The notes: generated from the letters alone by a model not told the origin. A DNA stretch of 64,000 nt from an uncultured Clostridia bacterium (GCA_934254815.1 CAKQME010000004.1:45984-109983), one strand, 5' to 3'. Positions 22,806 to 59,673 are shown, counted from the first letter of the stretch. A program made the numbers and translations.

Positions 22806-22837
22806 GTCATATTAAGCGTAAGCGAAATATCCCGCCG

Positions 22838-22888: not shown

Positions 22889-22908
22889 GTGTAACCGATT
22901 TAATTCGA

Positions 22909-31902: not shown

Positions 31903-31973
31903 GCATTATGAATAATATAAATTGTATGCATTAAAATTTTAATAATATGCAAAAATTTTTGAGGAGGTTCGAT

Positions 31974-41279: not shown

Positions 41280-41308
41280 TAAATAATATAAAAAATCAGC
41301 AGAAAAAG

Positions 41309-41357
41309 AAAGGTTGCGTTTCTATTCTTAAAAAGATAGGAGCGTAACCTTTTTTTG
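41309..41357 (+). terminator. Terminator/attenuator after the giant LRR gene
   Basis: 17-bp stem (three G-U pairs) aaaggttgcgtttctat / ataggagcgtaaccttt with a 10-nt loop, followed by ttttttg. Confidence 0.65.
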
Positions 41358-41497
41358 CTTTCCCCGACATGAAAACCGAATTGTATGGGGTAAAGGGCGA
41401 TGAAACTGTATTCTTGCGGTTAAAGACCGTTAAATCGGTTGCTAATATTTCGTCGATGTGCTAAAATATATGGGATATTTGTTTATAGGAGTAAAAA

Positions 41498-42829: not shown

Positions 42830-42844
42830 GTTGTCGTTCAGGCG

Positions 42845-42884
42845 CGAGCCGCCCGCATTTGCGGGCGGCTCGTATTATTTTTTT
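42845..42884 (+). terminator. Strong rho-independent terminator
   Basis: 12-bp GC-rich stem cgagccgcccgc / gcgggcggctcg with a 4-nt loop, followed by tattattttttt. Confidence 0.9.
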
Positions 42885-43012
42885 ACGCGGAAATGTTGAA
42901 TATTTTTCGAATAAATTTTGCATAAATGAATAACCGTATTTTGTTTTTTATTATCGGAAGATGAAAATTTAATGGCGGAAAGCATTTTTTTTGCTTAACG
43001 TATTCAAAACTC

Positions 43013-43041
43013 TTTACATTTTCGGGCGTTTGTGGTATACT
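43013..43041 (+). promoter_or_regulatory. Sigma-A promoter (P2) of the MoxR-vWA-LRR operon
   Basis: TTTACA-N17-TATACT with a TGn extension, 159 nt upstream of the ATG at 43200. Confidence 0.65.
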
Positions 43042-43072
43042 TACAAACAATTATAACTGGGCGAGTTATAAT

Positions 43073-43111
43073 TATAAGTACAGCTTATAGCAGGTATAAG
43101 TACAGCTTATA
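43073..43111. repeat. Right copy of the 39-nt inverted repeat, preceded by a third palindrome TTATAAC-N7-GTTATAA (43051-43071)
   Basis: tataagtacagcttata-gcagg-tataagtacagcttata, which is the reverse complement of 31864-31902 at 36 of 39 positions. Confidence 0.95.
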
Positions 43112-43199
43112 CCTCGACGAAACTTAGGATAATTTTTAATAAAAAACCTTATTTTTCGTCAAGTTTCGCCCGAAAAATCTTTTTTAAAGGAGAGAAGCT

Positions 43200-44246
43200 A
43201 TGAAATCGGTAAAATTGTTCGAAAAGTATTATAAGCGCGTTGCTCGCGAAAGCATGACGAAAGCTGTTATCTGCGGCTTGATAATCGGGTTTGCGGCTAT
43301 GTTTATAACGGCAATCTTATTTTGGTTTTTCAATCCCAAGCTTTTTTGGCTTGCGTTTATCGCGCTTGCTGTAGGCGCGGGCGTTTCAGCTCCGTTATTT
43401 TATCGTTATAAATTCAAACCCACGTCGAGCGCAGTCGCAACGCGTATAGACGAGTTGGGCCTTGAAGAAAGAATGATAACCATGAACGAGCATATGGGCG
43501 ACGAATCTTATATCGCCAAAAGACAACGCGAAGACGCGGTAAAAACGCTCGGCACGATAAGTTCCGACCTTATTAAAATCGTGGTAAGTATTCCGCTTAT
43601 TATAGCCGCGTGCTTTGCGGCGACGCTCGGCGCGGGTATGACTACCGTCGGCGCGCTTGCTAATGCCGGGGTAATCGACGGAGGAAAAGATATAATCGAC
43701 GATATAACCAGAGAAGACCCGATTTACTACGATGTCGAATACGACACCCGGGGCGACGGCGAAATCGTCGGGGATATCGTTCAGAGAATCGAGAAAGGCA
43801 AAGACGCCACCGAGATTTACGCCGTAGCGGGAGACGGTTATGTGTTCTCCTGCTGGGTCATAAAAGGTCAGAAAGAAGCCGGCGAACCGTATCGTCAGGA
43901 TACCAAGATCGAAGAGGATATGAAGATAATCGCGGTGTTCGAGCCTGCCAACGGCGACGGTGAAGGCGAAGGTGAAGGCGATGGCGATGGCGAAGATCAG
44001 GGCGACAGCGAAAAGCCCGGCGACGGCGACGGGCAGGGTAACGACGGCAATAGTAACAATAACGGCGGCATAAGCCCCGGCGGTTCTTACGTCAGCAACG
44101 ATCAGGTGATAGACGGTAAACAGGACTATAAAGACCATTACGACGCCGCAAGAGAAGAAGCTACGGATAACGCTCGCGATAACGGAAATCTTACTGACGA
44201 AGACAGAGACGCGATAGACGGATATTTCAACATTATTAAAAAATAA
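43200..44246 (+). CDS. Membrane protein with a Listeria-Bacteroides-type repeat and an acidic Gly/Asp/Glu low-complexity tract
   Basis: Two N-terminal TM helices and a third hydrophobic segment. Also 'YAVAGDGYVFSCWVIKG' and 'GDGEGEGEGDGDGEDQGDSEKPGDGDGQGNDGNSNNNGG'. It is the first gene of the MoxR operon. Confidence 0.7.
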   Translation: MKSVKLFEKYYKRVARESMTKAVICGLIIGFAAMFITAILFWFFNPKLFWLAFIALAVGAGVSAPLFYRYKFKPTSSAVATRIDELGLEERMITMNEHMGDESYIAKRQREDAVKTLGTISSDLIKIVVSIPLIIAACFAATLGAGMTTVGALANAGVIDGGKDIIDDITREDPIYYDVEYDTRGDGEIVGDIVQRIEKGKDATEIYAVAGDGYVFSCWVIKGQKEAGEPYRQDTKIEEDMKIIAVFEPANGDGEGEGEGDGDGEDQGDSEKPGDGDGQGNDGNSNNNGGISPGGSYVSNDQVIDGKQDYKDHYDAAREEATDNARDNGNLTDEDRDAIDGYFNIIKK

Positions 44247-44273
44247 AAAATTTAAAATACAGAGAGTAGAAAA

Positions 44274-45272
44274 ATGATAACAGAAAAGGACATTGAACAG
44301 TTCAGCGCACAATGCAACGAGATTTTTAAACAGGTAAGCAGAGACGTTATAGGTCAGAAAGACGTAGTCGAAGGCACTATCGTAGCCATGATAGCGGGCG
44401 GTAACGTACTTCTCGAAGGCGTTCCGGGGGTCGGCAAGACAAGACTTGTAAGATCGCTCGGAAGAGTTTTCGATCTTCCGTTCTCCCGTATCCAGTTCAC
44501 GCCCGACCTTATGCCGGCGGACGTTACGGGTACTAACATTATAGTAAAGGACGAAGAGGGCAACTCGACGTTCAAATTCCAGCCCGGACCTATTTTCAGT
44601 AACATTATCTTAGCCGACGAAATCAACCGTGCGACGCCCAAAACTCAGTCCGCGTTGCTCGAAGCAATGCAGGAACATACCGTTACGGTAATGGGCGTTT
44701 CGAGAAAACTTGCAGAACCGTTCTTCGTCCTTGCGACGCAGAACCCCATAGAACAGGACGGTACTTATCCGCTTCCCGAAGCGCAGATGGACCGTTTCAT
44801 GTTTAAACTCATCGTTCCGAACCCCAGCCTCGAAGAGCTTATGCAGATAGTCGATATGACGCAGAAGACTATGGCGGAGGTCGCGGAAGCGGCTTGTAAC
44901 GGCGAACAACTTCTCAGAATGAGAGAAACGGCGAACCAGATTCCCGTAGCGGAAGAAGTTCTCCGCTATGCGATGACTTTGACTTCGGCAACCCACCCCG
45001 ACAGCGAAAACGCTTCGGAAGCTGCCAAGAAGTACGTCAGAGTCGGCGCAAGCCCGCGTGCGGGTCAGGCTCTTATTTCAGCTGCAAAGGTCGTCGCTCT
45101 GATAAAGGGCAGATTCAACGTTGCGTATTCGGATATCAACGAACTTGCTTATCCCGTTCTTCGTCACCGTCTTAAACTCAATTTCGAGGCTATCGCGGAG
45201 AGAATTTCGGCAGACGAGATCATTAAGATGATAGTCGAAGAAGTCGGCAAGACGTTTAAAGGCAAAAAGTGA
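44274..45272 (+). CDS. MoxR-family AAA+ ATPase
   Basis: Walker A 'GVPGVGKT', Walker B 'ILADEINRA', 'PKTQSALLEAMQE', and a length of 332 aa. Confidence 0.9.
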   Translation: MITEKDIEQFSAQCNEIFKQVSRDVIGQKDVVEGTIVAMIAGGNVLLEGVPGVGKTRLVRSLGRVFDLPFSRIQFTPDLMPADVTGTNIIVKDEEGNSTFKFQPGPIFSNIILADEINRATPKTQSALLEAMQEHTVTVMGVSRKLAEPFFVLATQNPIEQDGTYPLPEAQMDRFMFKLIVPNPSLEELMQIVDMTQKTMAEVAEAACNGEQLLRMRETANQIPVAEEVLRYAMTLTSATHPDSENASEAAKKYVRVGASPRAGQALISAAKVVALIKGRFNVAYSDINELAYPVLRHRLKLNFEAIAERISADEIIKMIVEEVGKTFKGKK

Positions 45273-45318
45273 TCGCTCGCGGAATTTACGCGGCGGTTTG
45301 TGACTTGGAGTTCGCAAA

Positions 45319-46221
45319 ATGAAAGTTTCGTATTTAAACGACAAATTTTTCAGTCGTCTCGAAACGCTGTCCTTAAACTTAAAATCTAATCTGGCAGGAT
45401 ATTTCGGAGGAAAGCACCTTGTTAATTCCTACGGTCAGACCGTCGAGTTCGCAGATTTCCGCGAATATCAGTTAGGCGACGATATACGTCGTATAGATTG
45501 GAACTTATACAGCCGTTTCGAAAAATTTTTCTTGAAATTATTTACCGACGAACGTCAGATGCAGATTCAGATTTTTCTCGATTGTTCTGCGTCGATGGGT
45601 AAAGACGATCCGAACAAGGCGGCATACGCGCTGGGCGCAGCCGCCGCGCTCGGATTTTTGGCTGTTCATAATATGGATAAAGTTACGTTCAATATTATGA
45701 AAGGCGAAAAGACCTCTAATCCGTTCGGTACCATAATAGGTAAAAACTCCTACTTCCGCGCTGTAAGTCAGCTCGAAGAGGTTACTTTCGACGGCGAGGC
45801 GGACATTGAAAAATGCGTCGCTTCCTGCCCCGATACAAGCGCGAATAACGGGCTTTCGGTTATCATATCGGACTTTATGACCGACAGCGACTGGAAGAAA
45901 GCCGTCGATTATCTGCGCTATAAACACAGACAAGTTCTGCTCGTTCAGGTGCTTACGCCCGACGAACTCGGCCCCGCTTACGACGGGCGCGTTACGCTTA
46001 TAGACTCCGAATCGGAGGGCGTTGACGATACGAGCAAAAATATGAGAATCAGAATAACCCGCGCCGAACAGAAAGCGTATGAGGCGGCTTTGAAAGATTT
46101 TAAGCAGGATATGCGTACATTCTGCGCAAAGCGTGACGTCGACTACGTTTCAGTAAGCACCGACCAGCCCATTGAAAAGGTTTTGTTCGGAGAGTTGTTA
46201 AAGGTTGGTGTAATCGAATGA
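45319..46221 (+). CDS. DUF58 (vWA-like) protein, MoxR partner
   Basis: 'FADFREYQLGDDIRRIDWNLYSR' is the signature DUF58 motif. A degenerate vWA 'FLDCSASM' follows. Confidence 0.85.
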   Translation: MKVSYLNDKFFSRLETLSLNLKSNLAGYFGGKHLVNSYGQTVEFADFREYQLGDDIRRIDWNLYSRFEKFFLKLFTDERQMQIQIFLDCSASMGKDDPNKAAYALGAAAALGFLAVHNMDKVTFNIMKGEKTSNPFGTIIGKNSYFRAVSQLEEVTFDGEADIEKCVASCPDTSANNGLSVIISDFMTDSDWKKAVDYLRYKHRQVLLVQVLTPDELGPAYDGRVTLIDSESEGVDDTSKNMRIRITRAEQKAYEAALKDFKQDMRTFCAKRDVDYVSVSTDQPIEKVLFGELLKVGVIE

Positions 46222-48281
46222 AGCTATTGACACCCTGGGGGCTTCTGGGGCTGATAGGCATCGCGATACTTATAATAATATATATAATCAAGCCTAACTA
46301 TCAGCAAAAGTTCATTACAAGCACATATGTGTGGAAACTGAGCCGGAAGTACAAAAAGAAAAAGCTCCCTACAAGCAGATTAAGAGACATACTTATTATA
46401 ATATGTCAGATACTTATCGTTACGATTTGCGCGATGATACTCTCGAAACCGTCGCAGATACTTAAAACGCAGACAGAAGAACCCGAAATAATCGCTATTA
46501 TCGACTCTTCGGCAAGCATGAAAGCTAAAAGCGGCGACGAAACGCGTTTTCAACGCGCGGTAAGCAGAGTGCGCGCTCTCGCCACGGAAACTTTCGCCGC
46601 AAACGGAAAAGTTTCGATAATTGTTGCGGATAACGCGCCGTATTTTCTCACTCAGAACGTAAGCGCGGATAATAAAGCGCAGGTTTTCGATTCCCTCGAT
46701 TCGCTTACCGACGCCAAATGCACTTACGGCAGAGCCGATCTCGACGGAGCGGTTAAGATGTGCGAAAAACTTATAGAGGGCAACCCCGAAACGGCGGTTT
46801 ATCTCTATACTGATACGAATTTCTATAACGTGCCGAGCGGTATTCAGCTTAAACGCAACGAAGTTATAAACAAAACCGAATGGAACGCCTCCATTCTCAA
46901 CGCTTATGCCGAAATAGTCGATAACTACTATAACGTTATCATAGAAGTGGCTTGTTACGGTCGTCCGCTCGACTTAGAGGTGAACGTAAGCGTTGCGGGC
47001 GCGAACGCGACCGACGAAGATTCCGGCGAAGACCTGGTTTTCGACCCCGTAGTCGTTTCGTGTACGGACGATTTGTCAAAACGTATAGTGTTTACTTATA
47101 ACATAAACGAAGCCGACGACGCGGAGGAAGGTACCGGCGTAGGCAGATACGACGGCGCGGAGATAATAGACCTGCGCGGTAAAATCGGGCTGACCGATCC
47201 GTCGACGGGCGACGAAACAGGTATTGTTTCGTTCGATAAAATCACAGTTACCATCAACGAAAACGATTCGCTCGTAGAAGATAACACGTTCGAAATTTAC
47301 GGCGGTAATAAAAACAAACTCAATATGTATTATTACAGCGTCGACTCGGACGGCAAGGGGTCTTTGAGTCCGTTTATAACGGGCGCGCTCACTTATGCGC
47401 AGAATAAATATGCCGATAAATGGGATATTAAATATACTCAGGTAAATACGGGCGATCCCGAAATCATAAGCGGTTACGACTATTATGTTTTCGAAAACAC
47501 TATGCCCGCCAAACTCCCCGAAGACGGTTTCGTATTTCTTGTAAACCCGTCCAAGGCTCCGTCGGGTTGCGGTTTCTCGCTCAACGGCGACGAATATCCG
47601 CTTTCTCAGACGTATCCTACCGATACGGGTTATCCGGAACTCGAATACGGCGACGACGGAGAGGGACATCCCCTTATGAGAAACGTCGACCCCACGAGAA
47701 TAACAATCAGCAAATACAGACGTTTAAGCATTAACGACGACAGCTATAAAGTGCTTATGGCTATAGACGGCTATCCCGCTCTTATATATAAGGAAACGGA
47801 AAACGCGAGAGTGGCGGTGCTTACTTTCTCGCTTAAATTTTCCGATTGGGGAATAGACGGAACGGGTTCTTTCCCGTTGTTTATGAATAACCTGTTTAAG
47901 GCGATATTCCCGTCCGCAACGGATAAATACGTCTATACCGTAGGCGAAGACGTAACGCTTCAGGGTATGGGTTCGTCGCTTTCGGTGACGAGTACCTCTA
48001 CTGCGGAGTACAGCGAATTCCCCGCGAAGATGCGCGTAAATACTCCGGGCAGCTATACGGTGTCGCAGACTTCGGCTTTCGGCAGAGAATTTTCGGACAG
48101 CTTCTTTGTAAAGATAGCTTCTTCCGAACTCAATATCTTCAGCGTACAGGAAAGCCTGGCAGACCCGTACCAGACGAGAAACGAGAACGACTTCTACAGA
48201 GATCTTCTCACATATTTCGCCGCCGCGCTTGTTGCGATACTGTTCATAGAATGGATATTGCAGTTACTGGACAATTTGTAA
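46218..48281 (+). CDS. BatA-like membrane protein: N-terminal double-TM, vWA domain, C-terminal TM
   Basis: The start overlaps the DUF58 stop (ATGA). The N-terminus 'LTPWGLLGLIGIAILIIIYII' is aerotolerance BatA_N type. MIDAS (metal-ion-dependent adhesion site) motif 'IIDSSASM'. C-terminal TM helix. Confidence 0.75.
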   Translation: MKLLTPWGLLGLIGIAILIIIYIIKPNYQQKFITSTYVWKLSRKYKKKKLPTSRLRDILIIICQILIVTICAMILSKPSQILKTQTEEPEIIAIIDSSASMKAKSGDETRFQRAVSRVRALATETFAANGKVSIIVADNAPYFLTQNVSADNKAQVFDSLDSLTDAKCTYGRADLDGAVKMCEKLIEGNPETAVYLYTDTNFYNVPSGIQLKRNEVINKTEWNASILNAYAEIVDNYYNVIIEVACYGRPLDLEVNVSVAGANATDEDSGEDLVFDPVVVSCTDDLSKRIVFTYNINEADDAEEGTGVGRYDGAEIIDLRGKIGLTDPSTGDETGIVSFDKITVTINENDSLVEDNTFEIYGGNKNKLNMYYYSVDSDGKGSLSPFITGALTYAQNKYADKWDIKYTQVNTGDPEIISGYDYYVFENTMPAKLPEDGFVFLVNPSKAPSGCGFSLNGDEYPLSQTYPTDTGYPELEYGDDGEGHPLMRNVDPTRITISKYRRLSINDDSYKVLMAIDGYPALIYKETENARVAVLTFSLKFSDWGIDGTGSFPLFMNNLFKAIFPSATDKYVYTVGEDVTLQGMGSSLSVTSTSTAEYSEFPAKMRVNTPGSYTVSQTSAFGREFSDSFFVKIASSELNIFSVQESLADPYQTRNENDFYRDLLTYFAAALVAILFIEWILQLLDNL

Positions 48282-48297
48282 GGGGAGGAGGAAATTT

Positions 48298-51195
48298 ATG
48301 CGTAGTTTATGGTTAAGTTTTTCCAACCCTTGGTTATTATTGTTGATAATACCCGCGATAGCGTTGGTGTTGCTGCCTCATTTCAGGCTTTCTAAAAAAT
48401 ACAGAAGAAACAGAAATCGTATCACGACGATAGTTCTTCAACTCATAGTTATGATTTTGTCCGTAACGGTGCTTTCGGGAATGACGGTTCATTCCGAGCA
48501 TAACAACACGGGCAATCAGGTTTTATTGCTCGTCGATATGTCGGACACCGAAGAACAGTCGGCTGAAAACAGAGACAGCTTTGTAAGAGCCGTTCTCGAC
48601 GCGGGCAAAAACGATAAATTCAACGTAGGCATAGTTACTTTCGGGTTCGATCAGCGTTACGTCGCGGAATTTTCCACCGACGCGGACAAGGTTTTCGAAG
48701 AATATATGAGAGCCGATAAACCCGATACGAGCGCGACGGATATCGCCGCGGCGCTGTCTTACGCAAAAGATTTGTTTACCGGCGACGGCACAAGTAAAAT
48801 CGTGCTTATTACCGACGGTAAAGAGACCGACGAAAACGCGCTTACGGTAATAAAAGCCGTAACGGCGAAGAACATAACGGTCGACACCGTCAACATTCCG
48901 TCATCTTTCGACGGCGACGACGTGAGAATAACGGGCATAACTTTACCCGATTATCACGTCAAGGCGGGCGACGAGTGTACGATAGACGTTCTTTTATCGT
49001 CCACCGCGCAAGCGTCTGTTTCCGTTACGCTTTACGATAACGGAAGCGAAATCGAAACGAAAGACGTAAACCTTTCGGCGGGCGCGAGAAACGTGAATTT
49101 CACTTACGCGTTCGAGGGCGAAGCGGAACTTCGCAAAATAGAAGCGAAGATAAGCGGTTCCGACGCGGTTGAACAAAATAATAGCTATACCACTTATTTC
49201 CTGCTCGAAAAATTCGATAAAGTACTTATTATCGAGCATGCCGAGGGCGAATCGGTCGAACTTGCGGAGCTTCTGACTTCGCAGGGGTATAAGCCGACGA
49301 TAGCCAACGTCCACGCGACGGGCGAAGCCAAAAATATGCCTCAGACCGTCGACGAATTGAGACAGTACGATCAGGTGGTGCTTAACAACATAGCGAACGA
49401 AGACCTTTTAAGCTCCGAAATGCCCGAGAAATTCGACGAAATGCTGTATTCCTACGTTTTCGACTACGGCGGCGGCTTGTTTACTACGGGCGGTACGGAA
49501 GACGGAACGGTCGGAGAAGATTCTACGGCGCACGCTTATAACAGATTGGACTTAAGCGGAACGTTGTTGCAATCGATGTTGCCCGTTCAGGCGATTGACT
49601 ATACTCCGCCTATCGCGGTAGTCGTTTTAATCGACCGTTCGGGTTCGATGAGCGGTATTTCCGCAGCCGGGCAGAATGCTTACTGGCACGCGATAAACGG
49701 CGCGGGCGAATGTCTTAACGCGCTTACCGAAAGAGACTATTTCGGTATTATCACTTTCAGCGACAGTCCGCAGAGAGTTCTCGATCTTACGCCCGTAACG
49801 CAGAAGAGCGTTATTTACGATACTTTGCAGAATAAAATGCCCGAACTCGGCGGCGGCACGGCATTCACGGGCGCTGTAAGAGACGCGGTTCAGATGCTCA
49901 TAGCCAACAGAAAGGTAAGCAGACGCCATATTATAATGGTTACGGACGGACAGATACTGGCAGACGAAGTAACCGCTTGCGAGGAAACTCTCGAAGGTTA
50001 TTATAATTCCGATAAAATCACGTTTTCGGCTTTGTGTATCGGTTCCGAAGCTTCCGACTCCAACAACGTCAAATTGCTTCAGAGGCTTGTCGACGCGGCG
50101 GGCGGACAGCAGAGCGGTATCCCCGGAGGAAGAAGAGTTCGTACTTACGATTCGAGCAATCTTACAAAACTCTACGGCGAAATGCGTGAAGAGTTAAACG
50201 TTAAACAGCTTAAAGAAGTAAACGCTGAGCCGTTCTATATCACTGTAGACAAAGCGACTTCGCCTATTCTTGCGGGGTTGCCTTACAGAGAAGAAGAAGT
50301 TAAAGACGAAAACGGAAATATCGTAAAGAGAAAGACTTATCAGTTAGATACTCCCGAACTCGGCGGTTTCTACGGCGTAAGGGTCAGATCCAACGATTAT
50401 CTGATACTGAAAGGCGATTACGAAGTGCCGCTGTACGCGCAGTGGAAATTCGGTAAAGGCACGGTCGGCAGCTTTATGACGGACTTGCAGTCGAGCGAAT
50501 GGTCGAGCGACTTTATGTCGTCGGATATCGGGCGGGAGCTGATAGGCAATATAATCGGCAACCTTATGCCGACGGAAAATATCCGACCCAACGAAATGCG
50601 CGTGGAGCTTTCCGAAGATAACTATATCAACCGCGTAAGCGTTTTCGCAACGCTTAAAGACGGCGAAAGGGTCGAGGGAAAAATCACGGACGTAAGTACG
50701 GAAAATACCGAAGAAATTTCGATGAACGCCGTAACGGAGGGCGGAAATCGTAACTTTTACGTCACTTCTCCGCTTGCCGAAGCGAATAACTTCGGAAGAT
50801 GTACTTTCGTGGTCAAAAAAGCGGGCGTGTACTCGATAACGCTCGTCAAAAAGGATAAAGACGGCAACGAACTCGCAACTTATACGATATATAAAGCTTT
50901 TTCGTATTCGAAAGAGTACGATCTCGCGTTACAGGCTGCCGATATCGATTACGAGGAGAATTTCTTTAAACCCGTAGCCGAAAACGGCGGCGGAGCGTAT
51001 CTCGCGGATATGAACGAAGCGCATTACGCCGTGTTCGATAATTTTGACAAGACGATAGAAAAGGTGTTCGACCCGAGATACTTGTTTATGATCATAGCGA
51101 TTATCCTGTTCGTAACGGAAATCGCCGTAAGGAAATTCAAGTTCAAGTGGCTTCACGAAATTATCCGCGAAGCTCGCGACAAGAAACAGTCTTGA
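48298..51195 (+). CDS. Membrane protein with two vWA domains flanking a GATase1-like (DUF1355-type) domain
   Basis: BatA_N-like 'FSNPWLLLLIIPAIALVLL'. First vWA 'LLLVDMSDT'. 'VLIIEH...YDQVVLNNI...GGGLFTTGG'. Second vWA 'VVLIDRSGSMSG'. C-terminal TM helix. RBS GGGGAGGAGG. Confidence 0.75.
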   Translation: MRSLWLSFSNPWLLLLIIPAIALVLLPHFRLSKKYRRNRNRITTIVLQLIVMILSVTVLSGMTVHSEHNNTGNQVLLLVDMSDTEEQSAENRDSFVRAVLDAGKNDKFNVGIVTFGFDQRYVAEFSTDADKVFEEYMRADKPDTSATDIAAALSYAKDLFTGDGTSKIVLITDGKETDENALTVIKAVTAKNITVDTVNIPSSFDGDDVRITGITLPDYHVKAGDECTIDVLLSSTAQASVSVTLYDNGSEIETKDVNLSAGARNVNFTYAFEGEAELRKIEAKISGSDAVEQNNSYTTYFLLEKFDKVLIIEHAEGESVELAELLTSQGYKPTIANVHATGEAKNMPQTVDELRQYDQVVLNNIANEDLLSSEMPEKFDEMLYSYVFDYGGGLFTTGGTEDGTVGEDSTAHAYNRLDLSGTLLQSMLPVQAIDYTPPIAVVVLIDRSGSMSGISAAGQNAYWHAINGAGECLNALTERDYFGIITFSDSPQRVLDLTPVTQKSVIYDTLQNKMPELGGGTAFTGAVRDAVQMLIANRKVSRRHIIMVTDGQILADEVTACEETLEGYYNSDKITFSALCIGSEASDSNNVKLLQRLVDAAGGQQSGIPGGRRVRTYDSSNLTKLYGEMREELNVKQLKEVNAEPFYITVDKATSPILAGLPYREEEVKDENGNIVKRKTYQLDTPELGGFYGVRVRSNDYLILKGDYEVPLYAQWKFGKGTVGSFMTDLQSSEWSSDFMSSDIGRELIGNIIGNLMPTENIRPNEMRVELSEDNYINRVSVFATLKDGERVEGKITDVSTENTEEISMNAVTEGGNRNFYVTSPLAEANNFGRCTFVVKKAGVYSITLVKKDKDGNELATYTIYKAFSYSKEYDLALQAADIDYEENFFKPVAENGGGAYLADMNEAHYAVFDNFDKTIEKVFDPRYLFMIIAIILFVTEIAVRKFKFKWLHEIIREARDKKQS

Positions 51196-51252
51196 TCGGG
51201 TTTACCGCGCGGGTAGCGTTAAAACGCATACCCGCATAATCGGAGGACTTTA

Positions 51253-54171
51253 ATGAAAAAAATCAAAAATATAATAATAGCGTTGTCTGCGGCGGTGTTT
51301 TGCCTTATGATGGCGGCGTCCTGCGGAAAGACGAAATTGTCTGCCCCGCAGGAGCTGACTATGGATTTAAACTACGTCCTCACATGGAAAACCGTAGCCG
51401 ACGCGCGAAGATACGAGATAAACGCCGTAAAAGAAGACGGAACGTCGTATCCCGCGACGGTGAACACTCCGACGTACGATATGTCAAAGCTCACCGACGG
51501 CAATTACGAAGTTACGGTAAGGGCAATCCCCGGCGACAGCGTGCACGACGTTTCCGAATGGTCCGACGTTTTCACTTTTACGAGAGATAAAGAGACGGGT
51601 TGCACTTATAAGCTTATAAACAACAATACGGCTTACGAGATCTCGCGTTGCCCCACTTCGATAACGGGCGATATGGTTATCGAAGAAATTTACAGGGGAA
51701 AACCCGTAATAAGAATAGCGCAGAACGCATTCAAGGGTTCTAAGATAGAAAATCTCGTGATAGGCAAAAATATCACTTATATAGGCGACGGCGCGTTTTA
51801 TAACAGCACAAGGCTTAAAAGCGTGGTAATACCCGACAGCGTAAATTTCATAGGCGAAAAGGTATTTCAGAACTGCCGTTCGCTCGAAACGATAAATATC
51901 CCCGAAACCATAAGCGAAATAAAAACGAATACGTTTATCAACTGTTCGTCGCTTGCGGCGATAACCATTCCCGACAGCGTGACGGCGATAGGCGACGGCG
52001 CGTTCAGGGGCTGTAAGGCGTTAAAAACTATAGTAATACCCGACAGCGTAAGAGAAATAGGCGGTTATGCTTTCGCGGATACGGTTGCGCTTACGAGCGC
52101 GACGATAGGCAAGGGCGTTAAAGTTCTCGGAGAATACGCTTTTTACAGAGCGACAGAACTTTCCGAAGTTAAGTTTGCCGCCGACGGCGACCTTACCGAA
52201 ATAGCGCGCGGCGTTTTTGCCGACGACGTGAAACTTGCCGAAATAGTTATTCCGGAGGGGGTTGAAACCATAGGCGACGGCTGCTTCTTCGGTGATAAAC
52301 TTCTCTCAAGCGTAACGCTTCCCGAAAGTTTGAAATCGATAGGCGTTACAGCATTCAACGCCAGCAAATATTATACGGATATCGTCGACGACAACGGCAA
52401 GGCGAGAGATAAAAACAAACCTTTTGTTTACGTCGGTAAATGGATAGTCGCCGCTTCGCCCGATATCGTCACCACGTTGACCGATATCAACGGCAATACG
52501 ATTAAACTTAAAGACGAAAGCGATACGATAACGCTTGTCGGCAACGATAACGTCGTCGGCATTGCGGACGGAACTTTTTCGAATTTCAGCGAGCTTGTTA
52601 ATGTTACTTTCCCCGATTCGCTCAGATACGTCGGAAACAGCGCGTTTTCGAATTGTCAAAAACTCTATAAGGTTATCGCGACAAAGATAAAAACCATAGG
52701 CGATTACGCTTTCGACGGTTGTAAAATCCTCGCTAACGTAAGATTTATAGCCACTGCTATAGGCGGAACGCAGACGAGTAATCTCGAAACTATCGGTTCT
52801 TACGCTTTCAGAAATTGTTCGGAACTTAGAAACAATACGCAGACTAACCTATTTGTACCAGATACTGTAAAAAAGATAGGTACGCGGGCGTTCTATAATT
52901 CCGGTCTTTGGACCGATACGGCTACGCATCAGCAAGGGCTTATATACGCAGGTAACTGGATAGTCGGTTATAGTTCGCTTCCAAGCGGAACGATAGTAAT
53001 AGACGAGGGCAGAAACAACCCCACCGTCGGCATAGCCGATTACGCGTTTTATCAATGCGCCGACTTGCAGGAACTCGTAAATTTAAACAGTTTAGACATC
53101 CGTTCTATCGGCAGAGGCGCGTTTTATGAATGTACCTCGCTTGTGAGCGCGAGACTTGGTAACAACATAAACGAAATTCAACCATATACGTTCTACGGCT
53201 GCGTTAATTTGACGAGAATAGAATTATCGAGAAATTTAACTACGATAGGCGAGCGCGCGTTTTACGGCTGTTCTTACGTCAGAGACCTCGATTTCAGCAG
53301 GGCGACGAAACTTGAATCGATAGGCGACCGCGCATTTTACGCCTGCAGAAGTCTGCGCAACTTAAATTTGGGTAATTCCGTAAAAATAATCGGAGATTAC
53401 GCATTCTATAATATGAACGATGACGGAGCGAGCAATACTTCGCTTAAAACGCTCGTTATACCCGATAGCGTAACGACTGTCGGAGCGAACGCTTTCGCCA
53501 ACTTAAAGGCTTTGGAAGACCTTACAATCGGCAGCGGCGTTACGTCTATAGGCGATTACGCATTCAAGAACTGCACCAAGCTTCAAACGTTGGTTATACC
53601 CGATAACGTGGTAAAACTCGGCAAGAGCGCGTTTTATAAATGTTTCGGCGTGACTACGCTCGAACTCGGTAACGGGCTTACCGATATAGGCGATTACGCG
53701 TTTTACGGAATGGATAAAATCGAATATATCGTTATACCCGAAAGCGTAGAAAATATAGGTAAATTCGCGTTCAAGGGCTGGTCGGCAATCACTTCGATAA
53801 TACTCGATAAGAATATCGAAACGATCGGCGCGCACGCGTTTTACGGCGAAAAAGCCGCCACGTTCTATTCCGACGCGGAGGGCATTATGCCGAAATGGGA
53901 ACAAACGTGGAACAGTTCGTACTCGGCGGTGATATGGAACTGCACTCTGTCGGAGGATAAGAGTTACGTCGTATCGGTCGAGATAAAAGAAAACGGAATA
54001 TCCAACCGCAAAACTAAAAACGGCATATCCGCGCCGCTTCGTAAAGGCTACGAGTTTGTCGGCTGGTCCGTAAGCGCGGGTTCCGAAGAAATAGCGTTTG
54101 CCGCCGACGAAATAGTAAACGCCGAAAACGGAGTTACGTTATACGCCGTATGGCGCGCCGTCGAAGCTTAA
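51253..54171 (+). CDS. BspA-type LRR surface lipoprotein (972 aa)
   Basis: Lipobox 'MMAASCGK', one Fn3-like module ('TWKTVADARRYEINAV'), LRR_5 repeats ('IPDSV..IG..AF..C..L') and a C-terminal Listeria-Bacteroides repeat ('GYEFVGWSV'). Confidence 0.9.
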   Translation: MKKIKNIIIALSAAVFCLMMAASCGKTKLSAPQELTMDLNYVLTWKTVADARRYEINAVKEDGTSYPATVNTPTYDMSKLTDGNYEVTVRAIPGDSVHDVSEWSDVFTFTRDKETGCTYKLINNNTAYEISRCPTSITGDMVIEEIYRGKPVIRIAQNAFKGSKIENLVIGKNITYIGDGAFYNSTRLKSVVIPDSVNFIGEKVFQNCRSLETINIPETISEIKTNTFINCSSLAAITIPDSVTAIGDGAFRGCKALKTIVIPDSVREIGGYAFADTVALTSATIGKGVKVLGEYAFYRATELSEVKFAADGDLTEIARGVFADDVKLAEIVIPEGVETIGDGCFFGDKLLSSVTLPESLKSIGVTAFNASKYYTDIVDDNGKARDKNKPFVYVGKWIVAASPDIVTTLTDINGNTIKLKDESDTITLVGNDNVVGIADGTFSNFSELVNVTFPDSLRYVGNSAFSNCQKLYKVIATKIKTIGDYAFDGCKILANVRFIATAIGGTQTSNLETIGSYAFRNCSELRNNTQTNLFVPDTVKKIGTRAFYNSGLWTDTATHQQGLIYAGNWIVGYSSLPSGTIVIDEGRNNPTVGIADYAFYQCADLQELVNLNSLDIRSIGRGAFYECTSLVSARLGNNINEIQPYTFYGCVNLTRIELSRNLTTIGERAFYGCSYVRDLDFSRATKLESIGDRAFYACRSLRNLNLGNSVKIIGDYAFYNMNDDGASNTSLKTLVIPDSVTTVGANAFANLKALEDLTIGSGVTSIGDYAFKNCTKLQTLVIPDNVVKLGKSAFYKCFGVTTLELGNGLTDIGDYAFYGMDKIEYIVIPESVENIGKFAFKGWSAITSIILDKNIETIGAHAFYGEKAATFYSDAEGIMPKWEQTWNSSYSAVIWNCTLSEDKSYVVSVEIKENGISNRKTKNGISAPLRKGYEFVGWSVSAGSEEIAFAADEIVNAENGVTLYAVWRAVEA

Positions 54172-54239
54172 TCGAATTTAAGTCGCGGCGACGTAATAAA
54201 CTGTTATAAATTTTTCTCTATAAAGGAGAGTTAAAACAT

Positions 54240-57200
54240 ATGAACAAAATCAAGAAACTATTTATCGCTCTTTTGACGGTTCTGACGGTCGCGCTCGGCG
54301 CGTTGGCTGTCGGCTGTAAAAAAGACGAAAAGTTTACGCTCTCGTTCGAGACTAACGGAGGAACGGCGATAGCAAGCGTTCAGCTCGATAAGGGAGCGGA
54401 ATACGAACTTCCCACCGCCGAAAGAACGGGATATGAGTTCGAGGGTTGGTATTTAAACGCCGAATGTACGGGTGAAAAAACCACTAAAATCACCGTAAAC
54501 GAAAACGTCACGGTTTACGCAAAATGGGGTAAACTCTTTACGCTTACGTTCGATCTGAACGGCGGCAGTATGGATAAAACCTCGGTTTACGTCAAAGCGG
54601 GCGAACTCGTAACTACGGCGGTAAGCGGTTTAACTCCGACGAAAGCCGATCATCAGTTCGGAGTATGGCAGATAGACGGTAAAGATCTTACCTCTTCTTA
54701 CGTCATGCCCGAAAAGGATATTACGCTTACGGCAAAATATAAAACGAAATACACCGTAACTCTCTGGAAAGAGGATATGAAAGGCGATTTCGTCAAAGAA
54801 GAACAGGAAGTCGTCGATTACGCTTACGCGGGTACGGTTCCGTCGAAAGACTTCGGCGGTACGGGCTTCGAACTTGACGCGAACAGAGATGGCAGCAAAC
54901 CCTTGGCTAAAATAAGCGAAACCGTAAGCGAAAATACTTTCGTATTGTATTATAAACGTTCGAACTTCATCGTAAGATTCGATACGAACTATCCCGAAAC
55001 CGCGAATAAAGAAGACGACGTTATCGAAAAGACCGTAAAATACGGTCAGGAAATCGACGTTCCGTACAATTATACCGCTAAGGGATATTATCTCGCGGGT
55101 TGGGCTAAATCGAGCCTTGCGACCGAGGTCGAATACGAAGCAGATTATATATCTTCGGTTCTCTATAACGGCAGCGCCGAAGATAAAGGACAAAATTCAA
55201 AGATTGCCCCGTTCGAAAACGCCACGCTTTACGGCGTATGGGTAAAGGGTAATGAAGATATGTTCGGCGGCGACGACTATTTGTTCATATCCGCCACCGA
55301 AGAGAACACCGTGTATCTTTCCCGCGGGGGAAAAATCTTCAAGGGATATTATACAGCCGCCGATTCCACTTTCGGTTTTGCCGACAGCACAGGCACCGAA
55401 TTTCTTGAGGGGAAAATTTTTAAAGACGGAACTTTCGCTTACGGAGATAAGTTAAGATCGAGAACATATGTCAACTACGTCAACGGCGTAGGACAAAACA
55501 GTCAGATAACGCTTACCGTCGATGATTATAACGGGGTTACCTATTACGATAAATCTAAGGACAGCGAGTCGACGGGAACTTACGTTTTCGACGCGCAGGG
55601 TTATTGCGTGGCGACTTTCACCGACGGAGAACTTGCCGGCACGGAAATGCATATAAGGCTTTCTTCCGTTACCATTTCGGGATCCTCAAAAAGCGTGTTC
55701 ATCGTCAGAAACGATTCCGAACTCGCATACGGCACGCTCTATCGCGGCGTGTATTCCGGCGGAAATATGACGTCTTATCCCGACGGATATTACAGCATAA
55801 AGCTCGACGGTTTCGGAACGGCGACGTTCTATCAGAATCCGCTTATGTTCGGAAACTACGCATATGTTTTCGATCTGGAAAAAATGATACTGACGCTTTA
55901 TACGTCCAACTCGATAGCGGGCAGATTCCGTATATATAAAGATGCGATAAAGGGCGATCAGGGTCAATACGATTACGTTTTCTATAATCCGGTGTACGAC
56001 ACGACGTTTGAAAGCGCGGATAAAACCGCAAAACTTACGCTTGACGGTTCGTTCAACGCGGTTTACGAAAAAGGAAACGAGAAAATAGAGGGTTTGTACC
56101 TTGCGAGCGATTCGCTGTTCAGCGGCGGAAAGATAATATCGCTTATTCAGAACGGAAAAACGGTCAAGAGCTTGCTTATAACGAGCAAAACCGAAACCAT
56201 ATTCGAAAACGGCGAAGAAACGACAAAGACGACCTACAGTTTCGAAGAAAAAGCGCAGGGTTACGCCGAATATTACTTCCGCGGAATCGACAGCACCTAT
56301 TACGCGCCGCTTATCGCAATAAACGATACCGCTCCGGGGCATATGACCGTTTACGGTTATACGACTTCGGGAACATACGAGAAAATATCCGAGGGTACGT
56401 TTACCGAAACCGACGGTGTATATCATTACAGCGTAGAAGCTTTCAATACAAGTTCGATATCTAAAAACGAACAAGCCGAAACGGGAGTATACCTTTACTA
56501 TCATATAGTAGACGGCGAAGAAGTCGTCTGGATGAAAGTCGTAGAAGATATTGCTAAAATCGAAGAAATCGAATTCGGTTTAGGCAAGTCGGTTATAAGC
56601 GGCGAAGTCTACGAAGCGACTTACTGGTATAGCGCTAAGAAGACGGGCGACGAAAAAGTTTCGTACGTTACGGAGTTCGCAGCCGAAAACGGCAGCGCGA
56701 GCCTGACGAGAATCGGCGGAATGATACGTTACAGCGAAGAGGGTAAAACCATTCTCGGAACGTATGAAACGTCTGCCGACGGAATAACCGCGATAACCGC
56801 TTACGACGAAAGCAACGGCTCAACCGAATCGGTATATGTTAAATTAAACGAAGAGACCAAGAAGTTCACTAAACTCGAATACGCGCCGTACACGATGTAC
56901 GCTATCGTAAAAGGCAATACCGACAGAAACGAAACGCTTAAACTGAACGGCGACGGCACTGCGGAATATACCGTAGACGGAGTTAAATACGAAGGAACCG
57001 TAACGGATACGGGCAAAAAGACCGAAAGCGGCGCGGAGATAATGAAGTTCGAATCTACCGAAAAGACGTTCGAATATCTCCACCTTTACGGCAGCAGCGA
57101 AGAATATTTCGCTAAAGAGGATAAGACGTTCAAAACCGAATACGAAGTCGACGGTATAGGAACCATAACGCTTGACGGCTTCCTGTTCAACGGCAAGTTC

Positions 57201-59447
57201 GTGGCGATGGACGGAACAGAATATAGCGGAAGAACGGCAACCCCCGAAGAGGGCGTGTTGGTAATAGCTGCGGATAACAGAACGCTTTACTTCGATATCA
57301 AGGGCGATACGTTTACTTTACGCGGAGCGGAATACGGTCGTTACGCTTACAACGATAACAATATATTCCAGGGCGTATACTTCATGTTCGACGGTTACGG
57401 ACGCTTAGAAGTTCAGAAACTCGAAAACGCGAATACTAAAGACGAAAAATTCGTCAAGAAAGGCGACGGCGTATACGAGTACGACGAAGCGAAAAAGGCT
57501 TATACGCTTAAGTACGCTGTAGACGGTAAAGCCTATGAAGTCGTAGGAATAGTCGGAGTCGTTATCAGCAACAACAGAGCGTACAGAGTGTTCTCGACGT
57601 TACATTCCGAAAACGTCAAACTCTATATCAACGATAAAGACTGGTCTATAATCGAACTCGACGCGGCGGGCAACGCCGTCAAGTACGGACCGAAAGGCGT
57701 AAAGGAAAACGGAACTTACACCATAATCACCGAAAATCTGTTGTATTTCGTAAATTCGTCGGCTACCGACGCCTGCCTGTACGCTTACGATAAAGAAGCG
57801 GGTACGGCGGTACAGCTCAACCGTAACAACGTAAGTTATTACACCAAAAACTTCGAGTCGTTCAACTTCACGCAATACGGTTTCGCGATATATAACGGAG
57901 ACGAGCGTTACTATTACGACATCACCGACGAGGACGAATATATAATTTATCGTCAACCCGAAGAGGGCGAAACTGCGCAGAACGTCAACGATTACGGCTT
58001 TATCACCGAAAATCTCGGCAAACTCGAAGTTTACAACGAAGCCGAGGGCGCGTATTATTACAGATCGTTCACATACAAAAAAGATAATAAAACCTACCAT
58101 TATAACGACGGAAACAGTCTTAAGTTCGACCGTGAAAAGAAAGACGGCGCAGACGATACGACTTACGGAATAAAGCAGGGTTCGGGAGATGACCAATACT
58201 TCATATATCTTAAATCGCTTACTTTCCAGCCGACCGGTTCCGACGAATTCGAAGTGTCGTGTACGGCTACTTTCGGCGGATATCCGACGGTAGGCGAAGA
58301 CGGTACCAAAACCTACGGAGATCTCGTTCTTTCGAACGGTTCCATAACCCGTAAAAAGCTCGATAACGGCGAATACGAAACCTATTATTCGATAATTTAC
58401 AGCGTGATAGGATATTTCCGTCTCGACCTCGATATAACTTTCCACGGCGCGTATAACGCAGACGGCACGGTTTCTCAGAACGCGGGCGAATATAAAGTGC
58501 TTTCGCTTAAGAGAGTCGTAACCGCTCCCGCTTATCAGTATCTCGATAACTATTACAGAAATTATATCAATACGGGTTCTGTCGACGGTTTCGAAAACGA
58601 TATCGGCACAATCGAATTTATATACGTTTACGACGAAAACGGCGAAGAAATCGTAAGTCAGAGATATTTCCGCGGCGAATTCGGCAAAGACAGCGGTATC
58701 GTAGATATAAACGGCAATACGTTCACCGTCGAAAACGGAACGTTCGAAGAACAGTCGAACGGATTGTTCATCGTTACGTTCAATATCCCCGAATACGAGA
58801 AGAAAGACGGCGAAGTTACCGACGGTTACACTTATAAACTCTATACCTGGATAACGCGGCACGGAGCGTTCAGAAACGGCTACGGATACAGAGTATACGC
58901 TTATACGAGAGTTCAGAGCGGACTTGTAAACGGAGCATATTCCGTCACCGTCGAAAGAGTGGTTTATACGGATCTTACAAGCGGATATACCGCAGGTTCT
59001 GTGTTGAACATTTCGCTTACTAAAGACGGAAAAGAAGTTAAAACAGATGCCAGACTTACGGGTTCCGAAGCGGCTTACCTTATAACCAGAACGCGCGACG
59101 CCGACGGTAAGATAACCGAAACCAAATATTACGCCGTAACGTTCAAAGAACAGGAAAAAGAAGTCGGATCTCAAAAGGTTATGCCTTTCGAATCGGCAAG
59201 CGTCTCCGAATTGGTAATGAAGACCTATTACGGACAGGACGGCGAATCGTATTTCGACGTAAATACCGAAAACGACGAGATAATGCTCATCTGGTATAAA
59301 GGCGAAAACGATAAAAACGGCGCGTATTACGTTCCGTCGACTACCGAAGAGCAGGAAGACGGCTCGAAGAAGATAACTACTTCCGACGGTTCCGTATTTA
59401 CCGTAAAAATTAACGGCGAAACGGCTACTATCGAAAAAAACGCTTAA
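54240..59447 (+). CDS. Large lipoprotein (1735 aa): N-terminal Listeria-Bacteroides repeats, then about 1400 aa of unassigned beta-rich modules
   Basis: Lipobox 'GALAVGCKK'. 'FTLSFETNGGT...GYEFEGWY' and 'FTLTFDLNGG...FGVWQ'. The remainder carries a recurring '(I/L)xLDGxG.A..Y' motif. Confidence 0.85.
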   Translation: MNKIKKLFIALLTVLTVALGALAVGCKKDEKFTLSFETNGGTAIASVQLDKGAEYELPTAERTGYEFEGWYLNAECTGEKTTKITVNENVTVYAKWGKLFTLTFDLNGGSMDKTSVYVKAGELVTTAVSGLTPTKADHQFGVWQIDGKDLTSSYVMPEKDITLTAKYKTKYTVTLWKEDMKGDFVKEEQEVVDYAYAGTVPSKDFGGTGFELDANRDGSKPLAKISETVSENTFVLYYKRSNFIVRFDTNYPETANKEDDVIEKTVKYGQEIDVPYNYTAKGYYLAGWAKSSLATEVEYEADYISSVLYNGSAEDKGQNSKIAPFENATLYGVWVKGNEDMFGGDDYLFISATEENTVYLSRGGKIFKGYYTAADSTFGFADSTGTEFLEGKIFKDGTFAYGDKLRSRTYVNYVNGVGQNSQITLTVDDYNGVTYYDKSKDSESTGTYVFDAQGYCVATFTDGELAGTEMHIRLSSVTISGSSKSVFIVRNDSELAYGTLYRGVYSGGNMTSYPDGYYSIKLDGFGTATFYQNPLMFGNYAYVFDLEKMILTLYTSNSIAGRFRIYKDAIKGDQGQYDYVFYNPVYDTTFESADKTAKLTLDGSFNAVYEKGNEKIEGLYLASDSLFSGGKIISLIQNGKTVKSLLITSKTETIFENGEETTKTTYSFEEKAQGYAEYYFRGIDSTYYAPLIAINDTAPGHMTVYGYTTSGTYEKISEGTFTETDGVYHYSVEAFNTSSISKNEQAETGVYLYYHIVDGEEVVWMKVVEDIAKIEEIEFGLGKSVISGEVYEATYWYSAKKTGDEKVSYVTEFAAENGSASLTRIGGMIRYSEEGKTILGTYETSADGITAITAYDESNGSTESVYVKLNEETKKFTKLEYAPYTMYAIVKGNTDRNETLKLNGDGTAEYTVDGVKYEGTVTDTGKKTESGAEIMKFESTEKTFEYLHLYGSSEEYFAKEDKTFKTEYEVDGIGTITLDGFLFNGKFVAMDGTEYSGRTATPEEGVLVIAADNRTLYFDIKGDTFTLRGAEYGRYAYNDNNIFQGVYFMFDGYGRLEVQKLENANTKDEKFVKKGDGVYEYDEAKKAYTLKYAVDGKAYEVVGIVGVVISNNRAYRVFSTLHSENVKLYINDKDWSIIELDAAGNAVKYGPKGVKENGTYTIITENLLYFVNSSATDACLYAYDKEAGTAVQLNRNNVSYYTKNFESFNFTQYGFAIYNGDERYYYDITDEDEYIIYRQPEEGETAQNVNDYGFITENLGKLEVYNEAEGAYYYRSFTYKKDNKTYHYNDGNSLKFDREKKDGADDTTYGIKQGSGDDQYFIYLKSLTFQPTGSDEFEVSCTATFGGYPTVGEDGTKTYGDLVLSNGSITRKKLDNGEYETYYSIIYSVIGYFRLDLDITFHGAYNADGTVSQNAGEYKVLSLKRVVTAPAYQYLDNYYRNYINTGSVDGFENDIGTIEFIYVYDENGEEIVSQRYFRGEFGKDSGIVDINGNTFTVENGTFEEQSNGLFIVTFNIPEYEKKDGEVTDGYTYKLYTWITRHGAFRNGYGYRVYAYTRVQSGLVNGAYSVTVERVVYTDLTSGYTAGSVLNISLTKDGKEVKTDARLTGSEAAYLITRTRDADGKITETKYYAVTFKEQEKEVGSQKVMPFESASVSELVMKTYYGQDGESYFDVNTENDEIMLIWYKGENDKNGAYYVPSTTEEQEDGSKKITTSDGSVFTVKINGETATIEKNA

Positions 59448-59462
59448 ATGCAAAGATTAAAT

Positions 59463-59494
59463 ACTTCCCCCCGAAAAGGGGGAAGTGTTTATTT
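59463..59494 (+). terminator. Rho-independent terminator ending the 16-kb MoxR-LRR operon
   Basis: 9-bp stem acttccccc / gggggaagt with a 6-nt loop and a T-rich tail gtttattt. Confidence 0.8.
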
Positions 59495-59566
59495 AAACGG
59501 CTTGCGGTTTAAAAAGTGAAAATTTAAACATAAAACGATTTTATTCGCTATACGGCTTATAATTAT

Positions 59567-59595
59567 TTTACATTTTTTAAAATTTGTTGTAGAAT
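59567..59595 (+). promoter_or_regulatory. Sigma-A promoter of the S8 peptidase gene
   Basis: TTTACA-N17-TAGAAT, 79 nt upstream of the ATG. Confidence 0.5.
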
Positions 59596-59673
59596 ATATA
59601 AAATAGAATAGTTTACTAATCGGTGGAGTTTCGCTTTTTAGACGGACGGCTATCGAACTGAATTGAGGACTTA

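Follow-up and report, generated by a model that had tools for sequence, protein, structure and literature searches.

The 64,000-nucleotide (nt) stretch of an uncultured Clostridia bacterium analyzed here (GCA_934254815.1 CAKQME010000004.1:45984-109983; the window) carries a gene cluster in which a MoxR-DUF58-BatA-type module is combined with three very large lipoproteins, two of them with leucine-rich repeats (LRR). An earlier reading of the same DNA without database searches, here called the sequence-only reading, had described seven tightly packed genes at this site. All seven open reading frames (ORFs) are in place on the plus strand, and the LRR protein of about 3,100 amino acids (aa) that it had placed upstream was recovered as a 3110-aa LRR_5 protein. 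The cluster and its signals are as follows, with positions counted from the first letter of the window:

31947-41279, plus strand: giant LRR_5 lipoprotein, 3110 aa, with lipobox FGASC, one Flg_new domain, and 20 LRR_5 stretches (Pfam)
41307-41354, plus strand: terminator-like hairpin after the giant LRR gene (signal scan)
43013-43041, plus strand: sigma-70-type promoter-like site matching the consensus, TTTACA, 17-nt spacer, TATACT, with an extended -10 TG
43200-44246, plus strand: acidic membrane protein with three transmembrane (TM)-like segments, 348 aa, pI 4.46
44274-45272, plus strand: MoxR AAA+ ATPase, 332 aa, with AAA_3, AAA_lid_2, and Walker motifs
45319-46221, plus strand: DUF58 protein without a TM segment, 300 aa (Pfam DUF58, 8e-33)
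46218-48281, plus strand: BatA-vWA membrane protein, 687 aa, with BatA N-terminal domain and VWA_2
48298-51195, plus strand: double-vWA/GATase1-like membrane protein, 965 aa, with two VWA stretches and GATase1_like
51253-54171, plus strand: LRR_5 (BspA-type) lipoprotein, 972 aa (LRR_5, 3e-180, 8 stretches), with C-terminal Flg_new
54240-59447, plus strand: Flg_new orphan lipoprotein, 1735 aa, with three Flg_new domains at the N terminus only
59463-59486, no strand assigned: terminator-like hairpin at the operon end, G+C-rich, with T-rich tails on both strands

Hidden Markov model searches agree with the MoxR, DUF58, BatA, vWA, and LRR_5 domains named by the sequence-only reading, and the Pfam domain calls fit its label "Bat-like." The ATPase matches AAA_3 with 4e-62 (208 bits, cut-off 27) and AAA_lid_2 with 4e-17, and both its Walker A (GVPGVGKT) and Walker B (ILADE) motifs are intact. 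The BatA-vWA protein is assigned by BatA (1.6e-07, 32.1 bits versus 25.9) and VWA_2 (1.2e-10). In the double-vWA protein, the GATase1_like match between the two VWA stretches is borderline (27.5 bits, cut-off 27), and there is a weak sequence match to the Bacteroides aerotolerance-related protein 4jdu (E = 0.004). The 972-aa LRR lipoprotein has an FN3-like N-terminal domain in addition to LRR_5 and Flg_new. Every gene is preceded by a GGAG-type ribosome-binding site, and the previously noted sharing of ATGA by the DUF58 stop and the BatA start can be read directly in the sequence.

Inspection of the three giant lipoproteins revealed the lipoboxes AASC, AVGC, and GASC, which are Gram-positive-type signals. 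In a pattern count, a Cys after an N-terminal signal peptide was found in 66 of 77 orthologues of the LRR protein and, for the 1735-aa protein, in 58 of 68; a lipobox Cys missed by the pattern was seen by eye in all six displayed LRR orthologues that had not been counted, and in most of the displayed sequences among the uncounted LRR and 1735-aa orthologues taken together. Each extracytoplasmic non-vWA component of the conserved block has at least one Flg_new-type domain. It is possible that Flg_new represents a common docking module of these components, though the domain is common in such bacteria.

A scan with one genome per species identified at least 401 loci with a homologue of the double-vWA protein, the best 80 of which were retrieved for neighborhood analysis. 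They derive from about 76 different assemblies, namely, metagenome-assembled genomes (MAGs) from the gut of humans, rabbits, deer, goats, chickens, and reindeer. ORFs were called in all retrieved loci and labelled by phmmer against the window proteins, junction counts were restricted to loci with enough sequence on the contig, and metagenome contigs were compared in addition to the 80 genome loci. The survey spans double-vWA identities from 93% down to 40% within one clade; the searches give best matches, and this clade fills the lists. Among the taxon names of the relatives are Ca. Neoclostridium, Ca. Scatosoma, "Subdoligranulum sp. CAG:314," and Christensenellaceae MAGs, and the named genera are placed in Clostridia incertae sedis by NCBI. 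Four loci are titled Acidiphilium (L010), Parasutterella excrementihominis (L033), Prevotella sp. (L035), and Anaeroplasma bactoclasticum (L038), yet hold the Clostridia-type cluster; these are probably mislabelled or contaminated bins. The double-vWA protein has at least 1245 homologues, annotated simply as vWA proteins from uncultured Clostridia.

The sequence-only reading had made its proposed linkage depend on conservation in relatives, and the neighborhood comparison found the order kept. In all checkable contigs the succession is giant LRR, acidic TM protein, MoxR, DUF58, BatA, double-vWA, LRR, and Flg_new giant, so that the conserved unit consists of eight genes with the giant LRR gene included. 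Gene tables of contigs with double-vWA homologues at 93, 55, 52, and 44-45% identity show this identical order, with proteins of about 350 aa (membrane protein), about 925-990 aa (LRR position), and about 1650-1740 aa (Flg_new). The distant proteins of about 925 aa, which have no precomputed Pfam match, are homologous to the LRR protein over its full length (coverage about 1.0, 35-39% identity), and the same gene context surrounds the three homologues that diverge most from the 1735-aa protein (28-30% identity). The junctions counted, with their median gaps, are as follows:

giant LRR, then acidic TM protein: 48/48 loci
DUF58, then BatA: 65/67 loci; median gap -4 bases, with the overlap kept in 99% of loci
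BatA, then double-vWA: 72/72 loci; median gap 12 bases
double-vWA, then LRR: 79/80 loci; median gap 6 bases, with an overlap in 41% of loci, often by 4 bases
LRR, then 1735-aa protein: 71/72 loci; median gap 62 bases

The gap between MoxR and DUF58, 46 bases in the window, has a median of 24 bases (65 loci). Terminator-like hairpins were found in 2 of 67 gaps between the LRR and 1735-aa genes, versus 30 of 68 positions after the 1735-aa gene. Beyond the block, the next gene (61 loci) is an S8 subtilase in 26 cases and an LRR-type gene in 2, and the other 33 are spread over at least 28 unrelated families; synteny thus ends at the block edge. Four assemblies have two double-vWA loci each (L024/L060, L070/L085, L034/L079, and L017/L071), and for the pair L024/L060 the complete clusters of both copies are visible. 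The paralogous double-vWA proteins are 50-51% identical in the four pairs and hence as diverged as distant orthologues; two pairs have full-length genes, and there the LRR proteins share 41-45% and the 1735-aa proteins 33-37% identity. Only one pair allows MoxR to be compared between two complete copies, with 86% identity. This suggests an old duplication with retention of both copies.

Pairwise-identity matrices from 45 complete loci correlate with r = 0.69-0.90 among BatA, double-vWA, LRR, 1735-aa, and acidic TM proteins. MoxR and DUF58 correlate with each other (r = 0.79), and their correlation with the exposed parts is only 0.28-0.64 (MoxR alone, 0.28-0.56). The median identity across relatives is 86% for MoxR and 72% for DUF58; that of the membrane and surface proteins is 32-44%, and these are collinear over their full length. 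The combination of tight junctions, decay of synteny at the edge, duplication as a unit, and co-divergence indicates that the linkage exceeds inherited synteny.

MIDAS (metal ion-dependent adhesion site)-type motifs are conserved in the alignments of all four vWA-type domains, i.e., as DCSASM of the DxSxS type in DUF58, as D96-x-S98-x-S100 in BatA, and as DxSxT at residue 80 and DRSGSM at residue 446 of the double-vWA protein. Cytoplasmic vWA-type adaptors are partners of MoxR-family ATPases in RavA-ViaA, CbbQO, and NorQD. The DUF58 protein, which has a MIDAS-type motif and no TM segment, therefore fits such a cytoplasmic adaptor of MoxR and is presumed to be one. BatA and the double-vWA protein each have two N-terminal TM segments with a strongly basic loop between them, an extensive central portion, and a C-terminal TM segment followed by a basic tail; in the double-vWA protein, the cytoplasmic tail reads AVRKFKFKW and does not vary among relatives. 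According to the positive-inside rule, the vWA domains of both proteins are predicted to face outward, in line with the periplasmic orientation that has been shown by experiment for the BatA-type vWA domain of Borrelia BB0173 (PMC5700661). In the acidic protein, the most conserved stretch is a cytoplasmic loop, D84-ELGLEER-T, and the outward part consists of a divergent Flg_new-like domain followed by a D/E/G-rich tail. Its family comprises 458 proteins among the matches listed, all of them unnamed Clostridia hypotheticals and many with Flg_new_2; comparison with PDB sequences gave nothing usable.

The 1735-aa protein had been called an orphan lipoprotein, and it is indeed without an informative match in sequence searches: beyond Flg_new, there is none in Pfam, NCBIfam, or PDB sequences. 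Its layout is a lipobox, three Flg_new domains in the first approximately 250 residues, β repeats of about 150 aa, and a β C-terminal region of about 500 aa. Profile-profile comparison of alignment segments delimited five to six tandem repeats at residues ~360-1200 (window positions 55300-57840) with a recurring (L/F)DG(F/Y)G motif; this repeat has not been described before. AlphaFold2 gave confident all-β models for residues 241-1000 and 1001-1735, with a predicted local distance difference test (pLDDT) score of about 90. The Foldseek/PDB matches are generic ones of the β-propeller and Rhs types, with TM-scores of about 0.1 and root-mean-square deviations near 30 Å, and are too uninformative to count in favor of an Rhs or β-propeller fold. 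When 1.84 billion representative proteins were searched with the C-terminal half, the matches listed included 222 relatives, nearly all of them 1630-1860 aa long, matching at the same position and sharing the same architecture. By these sequence matches, the 1735-aa protein appears to be a closed family dedicated to the cluster. An antisense ORF of 617 aa (57600-59453, minus strand) lies wholly within the 3' part of its gene; in this region of strong AT skew (0.26) it is most likely a shadow ORF and not a gene.

Candidate sites for the promoter and the terminator that had been assigned to the two ends of the seven-gene block were both found as consensus matches. The promoter-like site at 43013-43041 ties with two others for the top plus-strand score in 41200-59800, and it alone among them has the TG and sits in the gap upstream of the first gene. 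Promoter-like matches total 31 versus a shuffle expectation of 23 ± 5, which is not clearly above it, and the sequence alone therefore leaves room for internal promoters. The 93% relative (L003) has a homologous promoter sequence, TTTACT-17-TATATT. At the other end, a T-rich tail comes directly after the terminator-like hairpin (59463-59486), and the signal scan revealed no comparable plus-strand terminator inside the seven-gene block. The operon leader (43042-43111) contains, just after the -10 element, the palindrome TTATAACT-N5-AGTTATAA and two exact copies of the palindrome TATAAGTACAGCTTATA at a spacing of 22 nt. These palindromes look like operators, but the 93% relative has only degenerate versions of them and more distant relatives have none, so that they are not counted as part of the conserved system. 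An Rfam search of the whole window gave no match. The base composition is uniform over the window, and nothing therefore points to a recently acquired island.

Overall, it is likely that the genes of the cluster share one function. Whether this function is that of a clade-specific variant of the Bat/MoxR-proper system, which would assemble or hold a surface complex of giant lipoproteins, is an evenly balanced question on the basis of the sequence comparisons, and this is the interpretation that we prefer. On the cytoplasmic side, MoxR as a hexameric AAA+ ATPase would act as a pair with the vWA-like adaptor DUF58 and its MIDAS motif. The pair would engage the cytoplasmic loops and tails of the acidic three-TM protein, the BatA-vWA protein, and the double-vWA protein, and through them cause the vWA proteins to assemble or to switch conformation. 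Acidic ligands for the outward MIDAS sites of the vWA proteins might be provided by the lipoproteins or by the acidic protein, and the vWA domains would thus organize the three giants (the LRR_5 proteins of ~3100 and ~970 aa and the Flg_new/β-repeat protein of ~1700 aa), which would be anchored in the membrane by their N termini. ATP hydrolysis by MoxR would power the assembly or a conformational switch of the surface complex. It is the contact between vWA proteins and lipoproteins and the role of ATP that we infer here. A more specific version, i.e., a trans-membrane machine in which MoxR and DUF58 switch the MIDAS domains in an integrin-like, inside-out manner and thereby load, hold, or release the three lipoproteins, appears unlikely at present.

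Several observations weigh against a dedicated assembly machine. MoxR and DUF58 would be cytoplasmic and the vWA domains outward, so that coupling would run only through short loops and tails, for which we know of no demonstrated precedent in the MoxR-proper subfamily. Two loci (L045, 6778-9987, and L072, 6880-9987) lack MoxR and DUF58 in the cluster, with the acidic TM gene followed directly by BatA; the ATPase pair may accordingly work in trans, or the surface proteins may be able to do without it. The evidence is comparative genomics within one clade, and because all relatives belong to this one broad clade, common descent accounts for part of the gene order. The giant LRR gene should be seen as a constant neighbor of the operon and not as one of its members, since it is usually separated from the operon by about 250 bases and followed by a terminator-like site in 22 of 49 loci. 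Finally, the structure models of the 1735-aa protein provide no functional clue.

The same synteny and coupling evidence would also fit a transient chaperone or metal-loading system, in which the module would assist the folding of the giant β-rich lipoproteins, their loading with divalent cations, or their release once Sec has exported them, with no stable complex being formed. MoxR-family ATPases with vWA proteins are established maturation factors, e.g., CbbQO, NorQD, CoxDE, and MoxR1 with RipA, and the two loci without MoxR and DUF58 in cis would suit a catalytic helper that works in trans or is supplied from a second cluster. In this case, however, ATPase and clients would be located on opposite sides of the membrane, and the co-divergence of vWA proteins and lipoproteins is as tight as that among the vWA proteins (r = 0.82-0.90), which fits better with a lasting contact; we regard this explanation as somewhat unlikely, though it is the main rival. 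The absence of any functional link, i.e., a Bat-like stress or aerotolerance module and unrelated adhesin genes that are adjacent by descent or by sharing a strong upstream promoter, is improbable. It draws on the affiliation of all relatives to one clade, on the known association of Bat operons elsewhere with stress tolerance and not adhesion, and on the abundance of LRR_5/Flg_new proteins in such genomes, where many unrelated Flg_new proteins were seen. Yet the order persists unchanged down to 40% identity, whereas the gene that comes after the block is drawn from at least 28 unrelated families, the double-vWA and LRR genes overlap in many loci, the whole block has been duplicated as a unit, and the lipoproteins are single-copy-type orthologues of fixed length and not interchangeable adhesins.

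Two further possibilities arise from weak database matches. The MoxR protein has a match of 3.6e-10 to bpMoxR, LRR domains are often sensors, and the exposed parts evolve fast, all of which would fit a sensor or conflict system with LRR proteins sensing outside and MoxR/vWA transducing or gating the response, comparable to the MoxR-vWA ternary conflict systems. This is very improbable, given that AAA_3 is by far the better fit, that the block has no β-propeller or effector domain and no nuclease-, toxin-, or signalling-like domain, and that the sole protease nearby is the accessory S8 subtilase; as PADLOC returned only generic AAA matches, a reading as a defence system was dropped. The LRR protein partially matches the NCBIfam family Gli349, which recalls an ATP-driven motility or regulated-adhesion machine with giant LRR "legs" moved or switched from inside, in loose analogy to integrin inside-out activation or Mycoplasma mobile Gli349. 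The vWA/MIDAS domains with conserved cytoplasmic tails do resemble integrin I-domains in principle, and MoxR is extremely conserved. The match is confined to LRR-type repeats, however, and with 110 bits versus a cut-off of 1750 it was set aside as a lead to motility; moreover, MoxR ATPases are not known as motors and the block has no cytoskeletal or motor partner. This is the least probable of the explanations.

The surroundings of the block are less conserved and contain two further features near its ends:

41498-42829, plus strand: 443-aa orphan with N- and C-terminal TM segments, located in the interval that separates the operon from the giant LRR gene
59674-64000, plus strand: 5' part of a subtilase that runs off the window, 1442 aa visible, with Peptidase_S8, PA, and Ig-like domains

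The 443-aa gene, which the sequence-only reading did not mention, has a promoter-like site of its own at 41439-41467 and its own terminator at 42844-42873. Its product has no match in Pfam, NCBIfam, or PADLOC, and the gene is absent from all 48 relatives that have this junction, among them L003 (the 93% relative). This genome-specific insertion lies outside the conserved system, and its inclusion as an eighth operon member was rejected on account of its terminator and the lack of a copy in relatives. The subtilase had been described as LRR-tagged; the subtilase is present, but there is no LRR in its visible 1442 aa. Full-length relatives have 2400-2600 aa with S8, PA, fn3_5, and a C-terminal LRR_5, and in the most divergent contexts they are found at 15484-22725 (L089), 15453-23246 (L090), and 16504-23940 (L091), in each case followed by a protein of about 530-550 aa and in L089 and L091 by an SBP_bac_5 gene after that. 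Following the cluster in 26 of 61 loci, the subtilase is an accessory neighbor and not part of the core, and it may be an accessory processing enzyme.

Farther upstream, window positions 495-22757 represent a glycan-utilization neighborhood with ABC permeases, a ROK regulator, DUF4838, a sialate O-acetylesterase-like protein, a rhamnosidase-like protein, a GDSL esterase, GH43, FucU, and mannose-6-phosphate isomerase, in addition to large proteins of 459, 782, 920, and 515 aa without a Pfam match. A 1076-aa protein encoded at 22909-26139 on the minus strand has no significant Pfam match.

The closest known counterpart is the Bat operon of the MoxR-proper (MRP) type (batI-DUF58-batA-batB-batC-batD-batE; Leptospira and Borrelia BB0170-0176), which has the same order of MoxR, DUF58, a BatA-type protein, and a second membrane vWA protein. 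In both systems, extracytoplasmic repeat proteins follow the module, and the vWA domains face outward, as demonstrated for BB0173 (PMC5700661) and predicted here. The differences lie in the partners. A domain search of the block genes found none of BatC (TPR), BatD, and BatE (SH3/TPR), and the positions of batC to batE are taken by the LRR_5 and Flg_new lipoproteins. Where the Bat operon has a BatB of about 340 aa, the second vWA protein here has 965 aa and a double-vWA/GATase1-like architecture. An acidic three-TM protein stands ahead of MoxR, and the module is accompanied by three giant lipoproteins that contain LRR_5, Flg_new, and a new β repeat. As the host of the cluster is apparently single-membraned, judging from the Gram-positive-type lipoboxes, its vWA domains would point toward the cell surface, whereas those of Bat/Borrelia point into the periplasm.

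A looser precedent is the PFNA cluster of Bifidobacterium (pkb2-fn3-MoxR-duf58-tgm), for which the authors proposed that MoxR helps to fold or mature the surface protein (PMC8430577). It resembles the present cluster in the fixed-order MoxR-DUF58 pair beside a large secreted adhesin-type gene in a Gram-positive gut bacterium, but belongs to another phylum, has a Ser/Thr kinase, a transglutaminase-like membrane protein, and an FN3 adhesin, and lacks BatA/vWA membrane proteins (PMC8430577). Pfam and NCBIfam gave no match to kinase, FN3-protein, or transglutaminase domains in the block. With the BspA-type proteins (Tannerella BspA, Streptococcus HupY/LrrG), the LRR lipoprotein shares LRR_5 repeats on an exported, surface-anchored protein. 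It differs in being lipid-anchored instead of using the LPXTG or T9SS anchoring of BspA/HupY, and in being a fixed-length orthologue in a MoxR-vWA operon, which is undescribed for BspA or HupY; its partial match to the HupY/LrrG family NF047961 (210 bits, cut-off 1250) does not make it a member. RavA-ViaA, CbbQ-CbbO, NorQ-NorD, and BchI-BchD likewise combine a MoxR ATPase with a MIDAS adaptor in the same compartment, and the counterpart here would be DUF58 with its conserved DCSASM. Clients of the RavA-ViaA type are soluble or membrane enzymes, whereas the only conserved candidates in the present cluster are the membrane vWA proteins and the lipoproteins across the membrane. The bpMoxR ternary conflict system, finally, has a vWA protein together with a β-propeller or effector protein, and neither a β-propeller nor an effector is present in the cluster.

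The sequence-only reading had known of no description of such a linkage. In the literature we likewise found no publication linking MoxR, DUF58, or BatA to LRR_5/Flg_new giants, but the loose precedents PFNA (PMC8430577) and Borrelia BB0170-0176 (PMC5700661) had not been cited there. What is new is thus a dedicated partner set attached to a known Bat-like module, and with it two new protein families have been defined, the all-β protein of about 1700 aa with its new repeat of about 150 aa and the acidic three-TM protein.

MoxR-proper/DUF58/BatA modules are widespread in bacterial phyla, and to our knowledge their clients and mechanism have remained largely unknown since the description of the Bat operon. 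The fixed, co-diverging partners described here provide candidate clients and turn the question of what the module acts on into a concrete hypothesis. If true, the inside-out machine would represent the first defined client set and a working model for MoxR-proper/DUF58/BatA modules. The cluster has a size of about 26 kb, and at least about 400 species-level genomes carry it, all from uncultured, Christensenellaceae-like Clostridia of the gut (Ca. Scatosoma, Ca. Neoclostridium, and CAG:314). It is thus likely a major determinant of the surface of these abundant but little-studied bacteria and hence of their contact with the host, food particles, phages, and neighbors.

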